Source: a virus
Length of the DNA: 64,000 bases
Strand: one strand, 5' to 3'
Virus record (IMG/VR): IMGVR_UViG_3300000114_000743
Positions 55,983-64,000 of the stretch are shown piece by piece. The position numbers and the translations under genes are program-made. A model generated the notes under the pieces. The model did no database searches. It was given only the letters and a program-made list of their open reading frames with translations, and was not told the DNA's origin. Numbering within the stretch: position 1 is the stretch's first letter; each line of letters starts with the position of its first letter.

Positions 55983-56852
55983 TTGAAAATAGTAAGCCTA
56001 TTTGACGGAATTTCTTGCGGAATGGTCGCGCTTGAACGAGCCGGAATAAACGTGGAAGAATATCATGCTTTTGAAATCGAACAAAACGCAATAACCGTCA
56101 GCAAAAAGAATTACCCGCAAATTAAACACCACGGAAATGTTTATGAAAATGACTTTAAGAAGTTTGTCGGGTTCGACCTTCTTATCGGCGGAAGCCCGTG
56201 TCAAAGCCTCAGCATAACACAAAGCAAGAAAAGAAAGCATTTAGACGGTAAAAGCAAGCTGTTTTTTGAATATGTAAGAGCGAAGAAAACAGTAAACCCG
56301 CGCTATTTCCTGTTTGAGAACGTCGCCAGCATGAACGTGGAAAGCAAGCGAATAATCTCTGAGCTTCTGGGTTGCGAACCGATTTTAATTGATAGCAACT
56401 GCTTTTCGGCACAAGACAGACCACGGCTATATTGGACGAATATCCCAAATATCAAAACAAATCTGAAAGCAAATCCAACAGTCTTAAAAGACATATTAGA
56501 AAAAGAAGTCGAAGAAAAATATTTCTATAACCAAAAAATATCCGGCATTGATATGAAGAAAAAAGTTTGTGCGACGTTAGACATTAACGGTCACGATATT
56601 TTAAAGCGTGTAAATAACCCGAATTTCAAATGCCAGACATTGACAACTTGCGGCGGCGGAAACACGCAAAAGAAGGTAATCGACGGCGTAAGAGCAAGAA
56701 AATTGACCCCCGTCGAATACGAGCGTCTTCAAACCCTGCCAGACGGTTACACCGAAGGAATCGCAACTACAAACAGATACACGGCAATCGGCAACGGTTG
56801 GACAGCAGACGTGATAGCATACATATTTTCATTTTTGCCAAACGCTATATAA
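55983..56852 (+). CDS. C5-cytosine DNA methyltransferase
   Basis: SLFDG, GGSPCQ, ENV, QDRPR, R.LTPVEYERLQ, IGNGW. Confidence 0.95.
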   Translation: MKIVSLFDGISCGMVALERAGINVEEYHAFEIEQNAITVSKKNYPQIKHHGNVYENDFKKFVGFDLLIGGSPCQSLSITQSKKRKHLDGKSKLFFEYVRAKKTVNPRYFLFENVASMNVESKRIISELLGCEPILIDSNCFSAQDRPRLYWTNIPNIKTNLKANPTVLKDILEKEVEEKYFYNQKISGIDMKKKVCATLDINGHDILKRVNNPNFKCQTLTTCGGGNTQKKVIDGVRARKLTPVEYERLQTLPDGYTEGIATTNRYTAIGNGWTADVIAYIFSFLPNAI

Positions 56853-56875
56853 AATTACACAGAGAAGGTGATTTA

Positions 56876-57529
56876 CTGAAAGTATTGGAATTATTCGCCG
56901 GAACAAGGAGCATATCAAAAGAATTCGATGCCGACGGACATGAAACATATACAATAGAAATTGACAAACGGCACGGCAACATAACCCTTTACGAAGATAT
57001 ATTAAATATTACATCAGAGCAAATATTAAAAACATTCGGAAAACCCGACATTATTTGGGCAAGCCCTCCTTGCACCAGTTACAGTATCGCCGCAATTTCT
57101 CATCACAGAGCGAAAGAAGCAAACGGCAACCTCGCTCCTAAAAGTGAATTTGCTAAATTATCAGACCAACTCTTGTTACAAACATTCAAATTAATTAAAG
57201 AATTAAATCCAAAATATTGGTTTATCGAAAACCCCGTGGGCGGTTTACGAAAAATGGATTTTATGACAAATGTTCCGAGATACATGGTTACATACTGTCA
57301 ATACGGCGACACAAGGATGAAGCCTACCGATGTATGGACTAATCATCCCGAACCTTGTTTTAAACCCCCATGTAAAAACGGAGATAATTGCCATGTAGCC
57401 GCACCGAGAGGAGCAAAGACAGGAACGCAGGGAATCAAAAGTGCGATACAGAGAGCGGTTATTCCACCCGAATTGTGTAGACACATAGTTAAAATATGCT
57501 GCAAGGATAAAGGGGTGGTCGGTATTTGA
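56876..57529 (+). CDS. Short C5-cytosine methyltransferase-like protein (putative CTG start)
   Basis: KVLELFAG, WASPPCT, IENP; AAGGTG RBS. Confidence 0.85.
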   Translation: MKVLELFAGTRSISKEFDADGHETYTIEIDKRHGNITLYEDILNITSEQILKTFGKPDIIWASPPCTSYSIAAISHHRAKEANGNLAPKSEFAKLSDQLLLQTFKLIKELNPKYWFIENPVGGLRKMDFMTNVPRYMVTYCQYGDTRMKPTDVWTNHPEPCFKPPCKNGDNCHVAAPRGAKTGTQGIKSAIQRAVIPPELCRHIVKICCKDKGVVGI

Positions 57530-58266
57530 GATTAATATACGGCGACTGTCTTGTCGAAATGGATAAATTGATTAACGAAGATATAAAAATTGATATGATT
57601 TTGACCGATTTGCCATATGGAAGAACCCAAAACCGCTGGGACACAATAATTCCGTTCAACGAACTGTGGTGCAGATATAAAAAACTTATAAAAGAAAACG
57701 GTTGTATTGCCTTATTTGCAGATGGTTTATTTATGGCAGACCTAATGAACTCAAACCGAAAAATGTGGAAATACAATCTGGTATGGGACAAAGTTTTGAT
57801 AAGCGGTTTTCTCAATGCAAACCGTATGCCGTTACGACAGCACGAAGAAATATGTATTTTTTATAACAAGCAACCCACATATAACCCTCAAAAAATCATA
57901 GGAAAACCAAATCACAGCAAAGGCAAACCGAAAAACTGTACTAACAATAACTACGGCTCATTCAAGTTTGCCGACAACAGAGAATCGCTCGGCGACATGA
58001 AGCATCCAACGAGCCTGTTGAAATTTTCAAAACCTCATCCGTCAAAAATGCTTCACCCGACAGAAAAGCCCGTAGAGCTATGCGAATGGTTGATAGAGAC
58101 TTTTACAAACGAGCATGAAACCGTGTTGGATTCATGTATGGGAAGCGGGTCAACAGGTATTGCTTGCTTAAAAACAAACCGTAATTTTATTGGAATCGAA
58201 TTAGACAATGAAATTTTTGCGAAAGCAAAAAACAGAATATCAATTTTGAGGATGGTGATTGATTGA
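57526..58266 (+). CDS. Beta-class N6A/N4C DNA methyltransferase
   Basis: DLPY, HPTEKP, VLDSCMGSGSTG. Confidence 0.93.
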   Translation: MRLIYGDCLVEMDKLINEDIKIDMILTDLPYGRTQNRWDTIIPFNELWCRYKKLIKENGCIALFADGLFMADLMNSNRKMWKYNLVWDKVLISGFLNANRMPLRQHEEICIFYNKQPTYNPQKIIGKPNHSKGKPKNCTNNNYGSFKFADNRESLGDMKHPTSLLKFSKPHPSKMLHPTEKPVELCEWLIETFTNEHETVLDSCMGSGSTGIACLKTNRNFIGIELDNEIFAKAKNRISILRMVID

Positions 58267-58865
58267 AAAAAGATTGGACGGGAAATCAAAACAGCATATT
58301 TAAAACCCTCGGCGCATCCAATCATACTGAAAAAGACCGAGAATTAAACGATTTCTATGCGACGGAACCGAAAGCTATTGATGTTCTTTGCGGTATAGAA
58401 AAATTTGAAGGTCAAATCTGGGAATGTGCCTGCGGTGAAGGGCATATGTCGAAGCAGTTGCAAAAACACGGTTATGACGTTATAAGCTCCGATTTGATAG
58501 ATAGGGGTTTCGGGGTAGGTAATATAGACTTTTTAAAATGCGATGAATTGTTTGACGGCAATATAATCACAAACCCACCGTATAAATTTGCTAAGGAATT
58601 TATCGAAAAAGCTCTTGATATTATTCCCGATGGAAAGAAAGTTGCAATGTTTTTAAAAATACAGTTTCTCGAAAGTAAAGCAAGAAAAGAAATGTTTAAG
58701 AAACATCCACCGAAAACGGTTTATGTGTCGAGTTCAAGATTGCTTTGTGCGAAAAACGCTATGTTTGACGATATGAGAGCCGGGGGTGGCAGTGCGGTCG
58801 CTTACGCATGGTATGTCTTTGAGAAAGGGTACAAGGGGGATTCTGTTCTTAAATGGGTGAATTAG
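58263..58865 (+). CDS. Small amino (N6A/N4C) DNA methyltransferase
   Basis: FYATEP, WECACGEG, ITNPPY. Confidence 0.88.
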   Translation: MKKDWTGNQNSIFKTLGASNHTEKDRELNDFYATEPKAIDVLCGIEKFEGQIWECACGEGHMSKQLQKHGYDVISSDLIDRGFGVGNIDFLKCDELFDGNIITNPPYKFAKEFIEKALDIIPDGKKVAMFLKIQFLESKARKEMFKKHPPKTVYVSSSRLLCAKNAMFDDMRAGGGSAVAYAWYVFEKGYKGDSVLKWVN

Positions 58866-58884
58866 AGGAAAGGAAGAAGCGTGA

Positions 58885-59409
58885 ATGATAGTAAATAAAA
58901 TTGCCAATAGCGGCGATGACGAATTCTACACTCCGATGTATGCCATTGAACCAATATTAAAATACATAAAACCCAATTCAATTATATGGTGTCCGTTTGA
59001 TGAAAAAGAAAGTCTTTTCGTTAAAAGGTTCATAAAAGAAGGGTATACGGTAATTGCAACGCACATCAACAGCGGTGAAGACTTCTTTGAATATGAACCG
59101 CCGGAGTGCGATTACATAATAAGCAACCCGCCATATTCCTTGAAAAGTGAAGTGTTGAGAAGGCTTTTTGAAATAGGTAAACCGTTTGCAATGCTGGTCG
59201 GTGTCGTCGGTTTATTCGAGAGTCAGAGACGTTTCGATATGTTCAAAACAAATGATTTTGAAATCCTCTACATGAACAGAAGAATTGCATACTTCAAAGA
59301 TTACGCAGAACAAAAGCCATCCCTAAATCCGCCTTTTTCAAGCGTATACCTGTGTAGCAAAATGTTACCTAAGCAAATCATGTTCGAGGAAATAAACAAG
59401 TCAGCATAA
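58885..59409 (+). CDS. Small amino DNA methyltransferase
   Basis: DEFYTP, IWCPFD, ISNPPYS. Confidence 0.8.
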   Translation: MIVNKIANSGDDEFYTPMYAIEPILKYIKPNSIIWCPFDEKESLFVKRFIKEGYTVIATHINSGEDFFEYEPPECDYIISNPPYSLKSEVLRRLFEIGKPFAMLVGVVGLFESQRRFDMFKTNDFEILYMNRRIAYFKDYAEQKPSLNPPFSSVYLCSKMLPKQIMFEEINKSA

Positions 59410-59420
59410 CAAATTATAAC
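59405..59420 (+). repeat. CATAACAAATTATAAC motif
   Basis: Direct read; overlaps the stop codon of the 58885 gene. Confidence 0.7.
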
Positions 59421-59457
59421 ATGAAAAATATTATATTGCGAAAGAAGGGAAGTTTAG

Positions 59458-59913
59458 ATGGCGGATTTTGATAACAACAGATTCCAAAGTAAAAATCAAG
59501 AATACGCTACGCCGACAGATTTATTCAAAGTTTTAAATAATGAGTTTCATTTCACAATGGATGTTTGCGCCGACGAAAACAACAAAAAGGTTGACACATA
59601 TTTTTCAGAACAGGAAAATGCCTTGATTCAAGACTGGAAGGGCGTCTGTTGGATGAACCCTCCATATAAAAACATGAAAAAGTGGGTCATAAAAGCCTAC
59701 GAAGAAAGTATAAAACACAATTCAACCGTCGTTTGTCTTATACCTGCAAGGACGAACACGTTATGGTGGTATGACTACTGCATGAAAGGTGAAATAAGAT
59801 TCATTAAAGGCAGACCGAAATTTGATGGCTGTATACACGGGTTGCCGCAACCATTAGCGATTGTAGTGTTTGGTGACAGATACAAAGGAAATTACAAGGC
59901 GGTGAACTTTTAA
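59458..59913 (+). CDS. Phage N6-adenine DNA methyltransferase (lambda-like Dam family)
   Basis: YATP, DVCA, WMNPPY, LIPARTNT.WW. Confidence 0.9.
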   Translation: MADFDNNRFQSKNQEYATPTDLFKVLNNEFHFTMDVCADENNKKVDTYFSEQENALIQDWKGVCWMNPPYKNMKKWVIKAYEESIKHNSTVVCLIPARTNTLWWYDYCMKGEIRFIKGRPKFDGCIHGLPQPLAIVVFGDRYKGNYKAVNF

Positions 59914-59947
59914 GAAAACATAAAAACAATTCAAAAAAACGAGCGAG

Positions 59948-60586
59948 GTGACAAATGTAAATAGCACATTATTAATAGATGAATATGTAGTTTATATACA
60001 CACAAACATAACAAACAATAAAAAATATATTGGAATAACATCATACGAAAACCCTAAAAGAAGATGGAAGGGTGGAAGCGGATATAAAAATCAACCATAT
60101 TTTTACAATGCTATAAAGAAATATGGTTGGGATAATTTTATTAATGAAATAATTGACAAAGGACTTTCTAAAAATGAAGCAGAATCAATGGAAATAGAAT
60201 TAATATCAAAATATAACACTACAAATAAAGAATTTGGCTACAATTTGTCAAACGGCGGAGCTAAATATGGCAAGCATAGCGATGAAACTAAAATGAAAAT
60301 AAGCATGATTCGTAAAGGCATTATATTTAGTGACGAACATAGAAAAAATCTAAGTAAAGCACATAAAAATATTATTCAAACACCAGAACAAAACTATAAG
60401 AATATGATGAGTAATCCAAGAAGAAAACCAGTAATTTGCGTGGAAACACAAATGGTTTATGCAAGTATAAGGGATGCTGGCAGAAACACTAATATTAGTT
60501 TTAAGCTAATAGCCGCAATATGTAATAAAAAATATGGTCGTAAAACTGCTGGCGGTTATCATTGGAAATATTATATGAAGGGGTAG
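59948..60586 (+). CDS. Free-standing GIY-YIG homing endonuclease with NUMOD repeats
   Basis: VVYIH....KKYIGIT, HSDETKMKIS, PVICVET...YASIRDA. Confidence 0.88.
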   Translation: MTNVNSTLLIDEYVVYIHTNITNNKKYIGITSYENPKRRWKGGSGYKNQPYFYNAIKKYGWDNFINEIIDKGLSKNEAESMEIELISKYNTTNKEFGYNLSNGGAKYGKHSDETKMKISMIRKGIIFSDEHRKNLSKAHKNIIQTPEQNYKNMMSNPRRKPVICVETQMVYASIRDAGRNTNISFKLIAAICNKKYGRKTAGGYHWKYYMKG

Positions 60587-60589
60587 TGA

Positions 60590-61615
60590 ATGACACTATA
60601 TAGCAATGAGATAGTATTTAGAGGACACCCCGATCGTGTCTGCGACCAAATATCCGCCTCTCTGCTTCGCGCCTATATGGACGGCGATTCAAACACCCGC
60701 GCCGGAATCGAAGTCTGCGGAGGCAAGAAAAGAATCTTTATAACCGGCGAAGTCACAAGCAAAGCAATAGTTGATGTTGGACAAATTACGAAAAGAGTGT
60801 TGCGCGACATCGGATATTCGACCGAATACGAAATCATTAACAATTTGGGATTGCAAAGCCCAGACATCTCGAAAGGTGTAGATATAGGCGGTGCCGGAGA
60901 TAACGGCATGATGTTTGGATATGCCTGTAATGACACAGCGGAATTATTGCCGACAGCAATGGTGATATTACAGCGATTTGCCGAGGATTACGAGCATTTG
61001 CGAAAATACAACAGCAACTTTCTTCCCGATGGAAAAGCGCAGATAACCGGATATTACGATGACGATTTTAAACTTATTAAGATAAAAGATTTTACAATAT
61101 GTTATCAAAACTTAGAAATCTGCCGTGACATGACTGACAAAATCTTGAAGGATAACGCAAAATTCATTTGTGATGATTACGGTATTGAAATTGAAAACTT
61201 TAATATAAATCCAACCGGTAAATTTTTAATAGGCGGGTTCGAGGGGGATTCCGGGCTTACGGGCAGGAAGATTGTTGTAGACGCTTATCAGTCATTTGCG
61301 AATGTCGGCGGCGGATGTATGAACGGAAAAGATCCATCGAAAGTTGATTTCAGCGGCGCGTATAAAGCAAGACAAATAGCTTGCACATATCTGAAACAAA
61401 GAGATTTGAAGTGGTGTGAAGTTCAATTAAGCTATTCAATCGGATTGAAACGACCTATGGCTGTTTACATTAACAGCGATATTGGGAGTATAAAGCCACT
61501 CCCAACATTATTCATTGATTGTGAACCGTCAAACATAATTTGTGATCTTGATTTGAAACGCCTGAATTTTGAGGAACAAGCTAAATTTGGACATTTTAGA
61601 AAAGCATTTCAATAA
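60590..61615 (+). CDS. metK: S-adenosylmethionine synthetase
   Basis: GHPDRVCDQIS, GAGDNGMMFGYA, PDGKAQIT, GLTGRKIVVDAY, GKDPSKVD. Confidence 0.95.
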   Translation: MTLYSNEIVFRGHPDRVCDQISASLLRAYMDGDSNTRAGIEVCGGKKRIFITGEVTSKAIVDVGQITKRVLRDIGYSTEYEIINNLGLQSPDISKGVDIGGAGDNGMMFGYACNDTAELLPTAMVILQRFAEDYEHLRKYNSNFLPDGKAQITGYYDDDFKLIKIKDFTICYQNLEICRDMTDKILKDNAKFICDDYGIEIENFNINPTGKFLIGGFEGDSGLTGRKIVVDAYQSFANVGGGCMNGKDPSKVDFSGAYKARQIACTYLKQRDLKWCEVQLSYSIGLKRPMAVYINSDIGSIKPLPTLFIDCEPSNIICDLDLKRLNFEEQAKFGHFRKAFQ

Positions 61616-61658
61616 TAGAAATCTGCATAACAAAATACATTATGGAGTGTGATACTGA

Positions 61659-64000
61659 TTGAAATTAGGAAGTTTGTTTTCAGGTAGCGGAACGTGTGAA
61701 CTTGCGGCAACCTTATGCGGAATAGAACCTGTATGGGCTTCGGAAATCGAAAAGTTCCCTATTGAAGTAACTACAAAGCGTTTCCCGAACATGAAGCATT
61801 TAGGTGATATAACAAAAATAAGCGGCGCAGAAATTGAACCTGTAGATATTATAAGTGGAGGCTCACCTTGCCAAGATGTCAGCGTGGCTGGTAAAAGAGG
61901 GGGGTTAAATGCCGAGCGTTCCGGGTTGTTTTTTGAGTATATAAGAATAGTCAAGGAAATGCTGGAAGCAACTAATGGCGAATACCCAAAAATCATTTTA
62001 TTTGAAAATGTCCCCGGATTGTTAAGCAGCAATAAAGGTGCAGATTATATGACGGTTCTCAGTGAATTTCAAAATTTAGGATTCATACCTGACCCCGGTA
62101 TATTCGATGCACAATTTATGGGTGTTCCGCAAAGAAGGAAGAGAGTGTTTATAGTTTGCGTAAATGGGAGCACTTTTCAAGTGAGGAAGACGAATACATC
62201 ACTAACAATATCAATGGAAATTCTTGTGCAAATATTGCAAGGGCTTTGGGTAGACATGAAGGAAGTATTATCAAAAGAGCCGGAAAACTTAGAGCAAGGA
62301 ATAAAAATAGAACCATCAGACACTTTACTGACGAAGAGGATGCTTTCATTAGAGAAAACGTTGGGAAAAGACGTATGGCTTATATTGCAAAAGAGCTTGA
62401 AAGAACAAACGGAACAGTTAGGGATAGAGCAATTCGTCAACTCGGATTTACTAAAGATGAACTTAGATATAACGGTGGCGCAGAAGTTTGGTCATCAAAA
62501 AACGGATATTCAAGAACAACAAGAATCGTTGATGGACAACGAAAAGAAGTGTTTTTGCATAGAGAAATTGCTTCGCAAAAATATGGACGAGATTTACGAA
62601 ATGGCGAAATCGTCCATCACGCAGATTTGGACAAGGGAAACAATGAAGAAAAAAATCTGTTTGTATGCAGAAACAATGCTCAACATCGCAGAGTACATAA
62701 GTCACTCACCCCAATTATTACAAAATTGTTCAAACGGAATATTATTAAGTTTAATTTTGATGAAGGAGTTTACGAATTATGCGAATAAACGATTGCTTAA
62801 AGCAAATGGAATCATGGGAAGGGATTTGGATTTCAAATCTTTATCCGAAAGAATTTCAACCAATAGAATCGAGATTGAGCGGAATATTAGAAATGAATGT
62901 GCCGGAGAAATTTTATTTAAGCCAGAAAGCGTGTACGGGAATTTTACGCAGAGCGACGAATCGGAGGAAGGAATTACCGAGAATACTGAAAGAAGCTCTT
63001 ATGCGGCAAGCGGGTATGACGGATTCAACTTCGCTCTCACGGGCGACACAAGTTTTATCGTTGGAGTAAATTGTGGTTTGTCAACCGGCAAAAACGGTAT
63101 CATTGAAAAAAACATGAAAAAGACAGCCGGTGGCAATGATACATCTGCAACATTGTGTTCTGCTTACGGAACAAAATGGAACGGCAATGCAGGCGCATAC
63201 AACGGCGATAATTTTGTTTTGGATGAAGCAAATGAAGACGTGATTTGTGTTGCGACACAACAAACCAACGCCGAAATTATGGTCGATAAATGCCCCACAA
63301 TTACCAAAGCCGCAGGAACGAGCGGAAACAACAAGCCTTTCGTCTGTTTACCCGAAAATCTCAGTTATGGCGTAGTTTCTAAAGGAAACGGCGAAGCCTT
63401 TTTAACGAAAGAACGACATATGAGTTTATCGGTAGGTGGTGGTCAGGCAGGACAAGGCTATCCGTGCGTATTAACCGAAGAAGTAGATGGAATCGGAATA
63501 AGCGGTCAAATCGCCGTTACTCTCGATGCAAATTCTTATAAAGGTTGCGATGTACGAGGAGGGATTGAACGCGAAGTTGTATTAACAGCGGGATTTATCG
63601 GGGGACAAGGAGCTAAAGCCGGAAGTATTGGATATGCGGAAGAGCAATCCCCAACGCTTCGTTCAGAGCAAGATGTTCATGTTGTTACATATGATACTTT
63701 GGCAATTCACCAAAACGCAGATGGAGAAGTTAGAGAAAGCGAAGTAGCATATGCAATCAATACAAACAGTAATGCAAGCGGAAGAAATGTGCCGCTGGTG
63801 TATTCCTTTGATTCATTGTCATCAAATTCAATGAAATCACAAAATTCAAATTCCGGGTGCAGGGAAGTTGATGTCGCAAAAACGATTGATACAAGTTCAC
63901 AAGACCCGTCTAAAAATCAAGGTGGTATCGCGGTTGTGTATGGAATAGCGACAAAACAATTTTCTCAAAATATTATTGAGAATGTATCACCGCCAATTAT
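61659..64000 (+). CDS. Long C5-cytosine DNA methyltransferase (alpha frame), runs off window
   Basis: Manual translation: LGSLFSGSG, GGSPCQD, ENVPG, GVPQRRKRVF, CAGEILFKPES, then TL-type variable modules; no stop codon in 780 codons. Confidence 0.92.
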   Translation, partial: MKLGSLFSGSGTCELAATLCGIEPVWASEIEKFPIEVTTKRFPNMKHLGDITKISGAEIEPVDIISGGSPCQDVSVAGKRGGLNAERSGLFFEYIRIVKEMLEATNGEYPKIILFENVPGLLSSNKGADYMTVLSEFQNLGFIPDPGIFDAQFMGVPQRRKRVFIVCVNGSTFQVRKTNTSLTISMEILVQILQGLWVDMKEVLSKEPENLEQGIKIEPSDTLLTKRMLSLEKTLGKDVWLILQKSLKEQTEQLGIEQFVNSDLLKMNLDITVAQKFGHQKTDIQEQQESLMDNEKKCFCIEKLLRKNMDEIYEMAKSSITQIWTRETMKKKICLYAETMLNIAEYISHSPQLLQNCSNGILLSLILMKEFTNYANKRLLKANGIMGRDLDFKSLSERISTNRIEIERNIRNECAGEILFKPESVYGNFTQSDESEEGITENTERSSYAASGYDGFNFALTGDTSFIVGVNCGLSTGKNGIIEKNMKKTAGGNDTSATLCSAYGTKWNGNAGAYNGDNFVLDEANEDVICVATQQTNAEIMVDKCPTITKAAGTSGNNKPFVCLPENLSYGVVSKGNGEAFLTKERHMSLSVGGGQAGQGYPCVLTEEVDGIGISGQIAVTLDANSYKGCDVRGGIEREVVLTAGFIGGQGAKAGSIGYAEEQSPTLRSEQDVHVVTYDTLAIHQNADGEVRESEVAYAINTNSNASGRNVPLVYSFDSLSSNSMKSQNSNSGCREVDVAKTIDTSSQDPSKNQGGIAVVYGIATKQFSQNIIENVSPPI
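62156..62788 (+). CDS. Nested HNH endonuclease with two Myb/SANT-like repeats (frame +2 of the MTase)
   Basis: FSSEEDEYI / FTDEEDAFI repeats; LHRE.A...GR.L...EIVHH.D.DK.NN...NL....QH..VH. Confidence 0.85.
   Translation: MRKWEHFSSEEDEYITNNINGNSCANIARALGRHEGSIIKRAGKLRARNKNRTIRHFTDEEDAFIRENVGKRRMAYIAKELERTNGTVRDRAIRQLGFTKDELRYNGGAEVWSSKNGYSRTTRIVDGQRKEVFLHREIASQKYGRDLRNGEIVHHADLDKGNNEEKNLFVCRNNAQHRRVHKSLTPIITKLFKRNIIKFNFDEGVYELCE
62779..63069 (+). CDS. Nested EcoHK31I-beta-like MTase polypeptide (frame +1 of the MTase)
   Basis: ESRLSGILEMNVPEKFYLSQKACTGILRRA...KELP.ILKEAL; AAGGAG RBS 9 nt upstream. Confidence 0.75.
   Translation: MRINDCLKQMESWEGIWISNLYPKEFQPIESRLSGILEMNVPEKFYLSQKACTGILRRATNRRKELPRILKEALMRQAGMTDSTSLSRATQVLSLE

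Follow-up and report, generated by a model that had tools for sequence, protein, structure and literature searches.

A C5 DNA cytosine methyltransferase gene that contains a putative homing-endonuclease gene was analysed in the virus record IMGVR_UViG_3300000114_000743 from IMG/VR, of which a stretch of 64,000 nucleotides (nt) was studied as a whole (hereafter the window). Here, we have focused on positions 62121-62930, where a first-pass annotation had proposed that a dual-coding motif VIII segment was duplicated around an HNH insert, with each copy keeping one reading frame. Three nested or overlapping open reading frames (ORFs) were found on the plus strand: the methyltransferase chain (alpha), the HNH gene in the +2 frame and a small ORF (beta) in the +1 frame. 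The features are listed below.

61659..64000 and past the window end, plus strand: alpha, C5 DNA cytosine methyltransferase ORF (PF00145, E=3.9e-46)
62130..62156, plus strand: motif VIII codons CAA AGA AGG AAG AGA, then strand VFIV (sequence reading)
62156..62788, plus strand: predicted HNH homing endonuclease ORF, 210 amino acids (aa), TTG start, +2 frame relative to alpha (PF13392 HNH_3, E=1.7e-6)
62157..62879, plus strand: inserted cassette, approximate extent, 723 nt or 241 extra codons (length beyond the fixed spacing of insert-free type C genes, see below)
62763..62768, plus strand: putative beta Shine-Dalgarno sequence AAGGAG, 10 nt before the ATG and inside the HNH codons for D-E-G-V-Y
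62779..63069, plus strand: beta ORF, 96 aa, +1 frame relative to alpha, ATG at 62779 and stop at 63067 (ORF reading)
62779..62874, plus strand: beta N-terminal extension, 32 codons, MRINDCLKQMESWEG...IESR, +1 frame (spacing and hidden Markov model, HMM)
62875..63069, plus strand: beta core and tail, LSGILEMNVPEKFYLSQKACTGILRRATNRRKELPRILKEAL..., dual-coded with alpha ...ECAGEILFKPESVYG... and then a variable linker (sequence reading)

Alpha starts with TTG, 11 nt downstream of a GGAG, shows no stop from there to the window end and comprises 1102 codons in the genome record (L004 160..3468). The complete motif set of C5 methyltransferases (PF00145) was identified in this one chain: I FSGSG, IV SPCQD, VI ENVPG, VIII QRRKR, IX RRLTPHECQRLQGFP and X GNGMALP. 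The HNH ORF is wholly nested within alpha and begins 10 nt after the motif VIII codons, and beta starts before HNH ends. Shine-Dalgarno-like runs of differing quality precede all three starts. The four readings given by the first-pass annotation are present in the sequence exactly as described. Upstream of HNH, the alpha frame at 62121-62156 reads GVPQRRKRVFIV and the +1 frame reads VFRKEGRECL, followed by TAG at 62152-62154; downstream, the +1 frame at 62854-62922 reads EFQPIESRLSGILEMNVPEKFYLS and the alpha frame reads RISTNRIEIERNIRNECAGEILFK. However, CAGEILFK in the last of these, previously considered as a degenerate motif VIII, is in fact the conserved alpha motif AG.ILFE.EG of the family.

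To understand this layout, it is important to consider relatives that lack the insert. When beta was used as a tblastn query, matches were found in the +1 frame of the single long annotated coding sequence (CDS) of insert-free phage methylases. In each of 89 loci, the motif [KR][YF][YF]LS.[KR]AC was detected in +1 relative to a long methylase ORF, and in all but two of 84 insert-free loci it (KYYLS.KAC) is located exactly 18 codons after the Q of motif VIII QRRxR, which agrees with the overlap that the first-pass annotation had described for such relatives. Phage P1 dmt shows this placement too, as do mycobacteriophage Omega and a Vibrio phage. The conserved beta core (ES.LS.IL...) starts ∼5 codons after QRRRR, and therefore the overlap is with the strand following motif VIII and not with the arginines. 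At the insertion point the dual-coded span of type C genes is ∼six codons long (alpha R-I-Y-L-V, beta E-S-T-L-S).

Selection on beta was analyzed using 52 non-redundant insert-free (type C) loci. Before and within motif VIII, variability at the three alpha codon positions was.21/.16/.49, the third being the most variable. Over the beta core, that is, from ∼5 codons after QRRRR to ∼codon +50, the values were.39/.10/.12 and then.56/.32/.18, and the most variable position was the first of alpha, which is the wobble position of beta. The alpha frame over the same span was free of stops in 52/52 loci, with 122 stops expected. Since the beta wobble signal is combined with an alpha frame kept stop-free, both frames appear to be read, and these patterns indicate that beta is a real gene under selection in insert-free relatives. 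The +1 frame was also stop-free from codon -78 in 51 of the 52 loci (94 stops expected). A +1 ATG is conserved at ∼codon -75, at alpha T-[N/D/H]-G, where the Asn codon is AAT in 31/31 loci versus 54% elsewhere, and a conserved run ATGAGGTG is located ten nt upstream of it. The sole exception among the 52, IMG/VR locus L059, has six +1 stops upstream of motif VIII, and its first +1 ATG is at codon -28 rather than ∼-75. Another candidate start, an ATG spanning the alpha D-A codons that directly precede motif VIII, was rejected because the third base of the D codon varies (0.47) and many loci read ACG. In phage P1 (MH445381.1, 2150-2620), the annotated dmt CDS contains the beta core LLSQVLEQTSIPQRYFLSSKACAGILRRAEARGRKLP... 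when read in +1; this frame stays open over a long distance upstream, and the annotation shows no gene in it. In the window, on the other hand, the upstream +1 frame contains 7 stops at 61906-62152, versus none in 51/52 insert-free loci. Two readings that overlap in type C relatives are here separated by the HNH gene. The statement that each side keeps one frame holds to this extent, with separate DNA for the two readings and a closed upstream +1 frame, but not in the sense of two copies.

A search of 1.84 billion representatives revealed 2196 proteins with a match to beta, and other arrangements could be recognized among the relatives. Type A (P0047, P0010) consists of single-chain enzymes, in which beta follows motif VIII in the same frame. 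In such single-frame relatives beta is located 58-65 residues downstream of motif VIII and does not overlap it, so that the case named by the first-pass annotation as refuting its own reading does exist. Type B (P0018, P0019, L096) comprises enzymes split in two; beta, the recognition region and motifs IX-X are all in the C-terminal half, which is initiated at the conserved upstream ATG. We had considered type B proteins such as P0018 as circular permutants with a genuine N-terminal domain; this was rejected, because their N-termini are the +1 reading of alpha WENVPGA. On the metagenome contig that encodes P0019 (L096, 1690-3278), alpha stops ∼45 codons after motif VIII, the C-terminal half is a +1 ORF, and the gene caller took this second ORF only. 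A third group of beta-matching proteins consists of short stand-alone betas. The top match of the beta search, P0004 (1621 aa), has 14 separate matches to beta residues 28-54 and may be a long repeat protein of LS.IL...KYYLS segments. No family match to beta was found in Pfam or PHROGs, and a PDB sequence search with beta returned chance matches only (E of at least 0.38).

The HNH protein consists of two helix-turn-helix-like repeats and an HNH_3 domain (28 bits against a Pfam cut-off of 24.8), without CxxC pairs, and is matched by PHROG HNH families with E-values down to 3.7e-15. H135, H154, H155, N163, N167, H177 and H181 are invariant among five homologues. Full-length homologues were found only within methylase genes, in nine cluster J mycobacteriophages, three metagenome contigs and a Desulfosporosinus metagenome-assembled genome (MAG); the invaded genes comprise those of KashFlow-type phages, L090, L093, L094 and L100. 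It should be noted that a related-loci search with the single HNH protein gave no locus and one with the single beta gave one, and alignment queries were needed. All invaded genes have a common layout (alpha open throughout, HNH in +2, beta in +1) and one insertion site, directly after QRRxR-x-F-x-V-C, and empty-site alleles are represented by Omega, Porcelain and Dove. With its catalytic motif, one conserved site and empty alleles, the ORF has the features of an HNH_3 homing endonuclease, whose cleavage activity is a prediction.

Compared with the type C spacing, the extra length is 723 nt in the window, 690 in KashFlow, 726 in L093 and 696 in L094, each divisible by 3. As for the insertion boundaries, whose mapping had been proposed, this spacing gives the approximate extent 62157..62879, but no close empty-site allele of the window gene was found, and the edges are therefore less precise than a single nucleotide. 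The alpha frame crosses the window insert without a single stop, whereas 9.6 would be expected with the window codon usage and zero stops occurred in 0/20000 resamplings. Over the HNH ORF, alpha was stop-free in five of five invaded genes, with 3.8-5.3 stops expected from the codon usage of each gene and a probability of zero stops of 0.001-0.012 per gene; the beta frame over the same ORF contains 10-25 stops in these five genes. A candidate Shine-Dalgarno-like site of HNH in the window is the purine run AGAAGGAAGAGAG (62133-62145), which is made of the motif VIII arginine codons and is looser than those of the other invaded genes. This purine-rich site lies 13-20 nt from the TTG, and the run ends 10 nt before it. 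In other invaded genes, AGGAGG, GGAGGAGG or AAGGAG is likewise formed by these codons, 11-14 nt before the HNH ATG, and the motif VIII arginines are encoded by CGT AGG AGG CGA in the invaded KashFlow versus CGA CGT CGT CGA in the uninvaded Omega. In L100 (Desulfosporosinus sp. MAG JBAQLX010000697.1, 2400-3110), the HNH gene carries two internal stops, whereas alpha is open and beta is intact; thus, alpha and beta appear to be maintained for their own sake, and this cassette seems to have reached a late point in the life cycle of homing endonucleases.

The beginning of beta is also linked to the cassette. In invaded genes its ATG (M-R-x-K) is formed from the HNH codons for L-C-E, and GGAG (GGAAAGG in L093) is found 7-10 nt upstream in all five of them. 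Because the ATG overlaps the last HNH codons, the N-terminal extension is probably a part of the cassette. Its pattern is fixed at 32 residues in the beta frame (M-R-x-K....L..W.G...), and the stand-alone betas P0005, P0016, P0080 and P0139 have extensions of exactly 32 aa. Uninvaded cluster J phages lack the extension and match KashFlow beta only from residue 30. Downstream of it, the window beta retains every invariant core residue. Comparison of Omega and KashFlow revealed that 97% identity resumes exactly at the beta core and continues onward, whereas upstream of the core the N-domain of KashFlow differs and, together with the HNH gene and the front end, forms a foreign block. A front-end HMM built from six invaded genes matched the in-frame linkers of the single-chain enzymes P0010 (23.2 bits) and P0047 (21.4 bits), with 10.4 bits for the best of 2000 decoys, whereas none of the 52 type C segments read in +1 at motif VIII scored above the decoys. 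The front end is probably cassette-borne and would descend from the ordinary linker of single-chain enzymes rather than from a motif VIII copy. The N-domain of the window alpha is ∼55% identical overall to both type C and single-chain relatives; it is tied to the latter only by the short motif VI-VIII spacing and by 67% identity to P0010 over 52 residues.

We suggest, with a probability of roughly 75%, that 62121-62930 contains both junctions of a homing-endonuclease cassette of 723 nt that is inserted in frame just after motif VIII of a phage or prophage C5 methylase, that three proteins are made from one DNA and that nothing is duplicated. Alpha would be translated straight through the cassette, gaining ∼241 residues between motif VIII and the AG.ILFE segment. 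HNH would be translated from TTG 62156 in the +2 frame, behind the purine-rich site of the motif VIII arginine codons, and the 96-aa beta from ATG 62779 behind AAGGAG, its start overlapping the HNH end. In insert-free relatives beta would be independently initiated, and an insertion after QRRRR would sever it from its upstream start; loss of beta would be avoided by a replacement 32-residue front end that the cassette carries with its own start and that is homologous to the in-frame linker preceding the beta core in single-chain relatives. Beta is predicted to bind alpha and to supply in trans the segment that single-chain C5 methylases have after motif VIII, and the HNH enzyme would home into empty alleles, co-converting flanking sequence.

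The proposed binding was also examined by structure modeling. For an insert-free alpha with its own beta core, the interaction prediction score from aligned errors (ipSAE) was 0.68, 0.67 and 0.68, versus 0.00 for the best of three controls, and the mark used for this score was attained by 58/80 solved complexes and 2/110 mismatched pairs. The predicted local distance difference test (pLDDT) of the partner was 74-75, contacts agreed between runs by at least 73%, and the modeled beta YYL pairs with the alpha motif IX strand VRRLT. The model supports binding of beta to alpha, and, because single-chain C5 methylases carry this segment in cis, it may reflect only a likeness to single-chain C5 folds.

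Several points weigh against the cassette explanation. First, all three products are predicted from sequence alone. Second, the edges of the window cassette are set by analogy with other genes. Third, a Shine-Dalgarno sequence would be expected closer to the HNH start than the purine run is, the spacing being 10 nt from the end of the run in the window and 11-14 nt in the other invaded genes. Fourth, the loci used for the selection tests share descent, and joint probabilities overstate their independence. Finally, the cassette explanation does not account for a four-residue match, YPKE, between the front end of the window beta and VPQRR as read in +1 in some of the type C genes. For a more general hypothesis the odds appear to be even: a large family of phage and prophage C5 methylases, including P1 dmt, would encode an independent +1 beta that supplies the post-motif VIII hinge in trans, and one HNH lineage would have adapted to this dual-coded spot by remaining stop-free in the host frame, by using arginine codons as a ribosome-binding site and by providing a replacement beta start and front end.

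Among other explanations, the first-pass proposal was that the dual-coding motif VIII segment was duplicated at HNH insertion and that the copies were then subfunctionalized, the upstream one for alpha and the downstream one for beta. This would be a rare 'unzipping' of an overlapping gene pair, but the evidence does not support it and we consider it unlikely. It is in line with the occurrence on separate DNA of readings that overlap in type C relatives, and with the upstream +1 frame being no longer open. The YPKE of the window beta, next to YPKE or FPNE as the +1 reading of VPQRR in type C genes, also favors it, as does alpha 'RI' opposite beta 'ES', which mimics the end of QRRRRI; the latter, however, is forced, because beta GAA TCN must read xGA ATC, which is R-I in alpha. 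This forced reading and the genuine CAGEILF motif together account for the apparent degenerate motif VIII. The nucleotide alignment that had been suggested as a check gave similarity at chance level: global identity between 62100-62175 and 62830-62910 was ∼42%, and the best local alignment between the 132-nt motif VIII region and the 141-nt downstream region scored 18, versus 16.1 +/- 2.3 for shuffled sequences (P=0.24). The same local test gave P=0.33-0.73 in KashFlow, L093 and L094, and no direct repeats were found at the insert boundaries. Profile comparison (hhalign) of the beta front end with the upstream +1 reading of the type C loci gave a probability of 0.1%, equal to that of the reversed control, whereas the linkers of single-chain enzymes do match the front-end HMM. 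In addition, the alpha-frame reading downstream of HNH never resembled motif VIII in four other invaded genes; it is alike among invaded genes, with W.D.L[SR]...LER...EC and then AG.ILFE. Neither the duplication nor the subsequent subfunctionalization was borne out by these comparisons, and the Omega/KashFlow pair shows replacement of a block. On the basis of these sequence comparisons, the separation of the alpha and beta readings is attributed to module replacement by a homing cassette, not to duplication and divergence.

A second possibility is that beta is reached by +1 ribosomal frameshifting near the motif VIII arginines, which would give a fusion of the alpha N-terminal part with beta. 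The beta core does start directly past the arginine codons, and runs of AGA/AGG codons are known as +1 shift-prone sites in Escherichia coli. However, ribosomes shifted in this way would meet the 10-25 beta-frame stops between motif VIII and beta in invaded genes, where beta has its own Shine-Dalgarno sequence and ATG. Moreover, insert-free genes conserve a Shine-Dalgarno sequence and ATG 75 codons upstream, with the frame open from there, and naturally split relatives begin their C-terminal half at the same upstream ATG. Thus, frameshifting appears very unlikely.

It could also be argued that HNH resides in a self-splicing intron or an intein, that the methylase is restored by splicing and that the alpha frame is open by coincidence. 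Introns often carry homing HNH genes, and the annotators of phage Schatzie were 'unable to determine intron boundaries'. On the other hand, an Rfam scan of 61000-64000 revealed no intron match at E<=1 (a single chance microRNA match was returned), the stop-free alpha frame over the insert in 5/5 genes is far past chance, and the insert lengths are multiples of 3. HNH cannot be an intein domain because it is out of frame with alpha. The beta start lies inside the element, and no such signature was reported for the analogous ShiLan element described below either (PMC11855218). We consider this explanation highly improbable. Least probable of all is inactivation of the methylase by the insertion, with beta as a decaying remnant. 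In cluster J mycobacteriophages, an in-frame stop or a change of frame does disrupt the methylase further downstream, ahead of motif IX. In the window, however, none of the motifs is damaged and the 1102 codons of alpha are uninterrupted, beta keeps all invariant core residues, and L100 shows the reverse order, with HNH broken and alpha and beta intact.

If the cassette explanation is correct, a mobile element preserves two overlapping host products simultaneously. Our data also suggest that a very common family of phage methylases harbors a conserved overlapping gene that is unannotated, and this idea is directly testable by silent mutations because phage P1 carries beta. Currently, such genes are annotated as split or truncated or are skipped. 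GenBank records of cluster J phages (L005, L007, L008, L095) disagree, showing either one long 'DNA methylase' or methylase fragments plus HNH plus a 'hypothetical protein', which in Thibault (gp104) is beta. The Schatzie record states 'coding region not determined; unable to determine intron boundaries', and the copies in L005, L007, L008 and L095 have a stop or frame change before motif IX. In the window, alpha after beta (63070-64000; L004 1570-3468) contains ∼ten repeats of a short module ending in T-L or T-I (for example, ATLCSAYG, PTITKAAG, AVTLDANS, SPTLRSEQ, AKTIDTSS, SPTLCSDS and SYTLNTTD), which look like a string of target-recognition modules of multispecific phage C5 methylases. 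In the neighborhood just upstream (55983-61615), several DNA methyltransferase genes occur in a row, such as 58885-59409 and 59458-59913, along with ORFs for a GIY-YIG/NUMOD3 homing endonuclease (59948-60586) and an S-adenosylmethionine synthetase with three MetK Pfam domains (60590-61615).

With regard to known systems, the insert resembles the ShiLan domain of actinophages, in which an out-of-frame HNH is hidden within a DNA methylase gene (Arsenault, Gosselin and Gogarten 2025, PMC11855218; Gosselin et al. 2023, PMC9957025). Both are mobile inserts in a phage methylase ORF, without a host-frame stop and with an HNH in the third frame, both lack an intron or intein signature and both are patchily distributed among close relatives. 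Thus, the window insert has the properties of a ShiLan-type element: no host-frame stop, an endonuclease in another frame and no intron or intein signature. The ShiLan HNH is a 195-aa protein flanked by zinc fingers; its gene starts with GTG, 18 bp inside the insert, and ends with TAAC. No ribosome-binding site was seen, and leaderless initiation was proposed (PMC11855218, PMC9957025). In contrast, the window HNH has helix-turn-helix-like repeats and HNH_3 without CxxC, and is preceded by the Shine-Dalgarno-like run of motif VIII. The question of translation raised for ShiLan thus has a candidate answer here, namely a ribosome-binding site formed by the motif VIII arginine codons. In addition, the third-frame gene beta has its start and front end on the window element, and the ShiLan papers mention no such gene. 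A tblastn search with the window HNH matched only cluster J phages, with no match in clusters A1, E or F1 at E<=1e-3, and the comparison with the ShiLan HNH is one by description. Our results would extend the hidden HNH arrangement in methylases from actinophages to Firmicutes prophages.

In a literature search we found no description of a family-wide beta gene, but nested beta chains have a precedent in M.EcoHK31I. According to later papers that describe it, this heterodimeric C5 methyltransferase has a small beta encoded wholly within the alpha gene in another frame (Lee et al. 1995, per PMC2836561, PMC3404938), and this beta is required alongside alpha, although its N-terminal part is dispensable (PMC2836561, PMC3404938). 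The window beta is likewise encoded wholly within alpha in another frame, the likeness again being drawn from descriptions. However, in those descriptions the EcoHK31I beta carries motif IX and its alpha does not, whereas the window alpha carries motif IX and the window beta represents the post-motif VIII segment, without motif IX. M.AquI, a C5 methyltransferase of two subunits, has its split point between motif VIII and the target-recognition region, as cited in a later paper (Karreman and de Waard 1990, per PMC3404938). The type B relatives P0018, P0019 and L096 are split alike, with overlapping ORFs, whereas the window alpha is a complete chain with motifs I-X and the second frame encodes only a ∼60-residue core. 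A further parallel is mobE in nrdA of Aeromonas phage Aeh1, a free-standing homing endonuclease gene that reportedly splits its host gene into two working halves. As in that case, an endonuclease gene is present within a conserved enzyme gene and provides downstream expression signals; the host ORF of the window, however, is unsplit and read through the endonuclease gene in another frame. Thus, the locus combines two known kinds of arrangement, a hidden HNH in a methylase and a nested beta chain.

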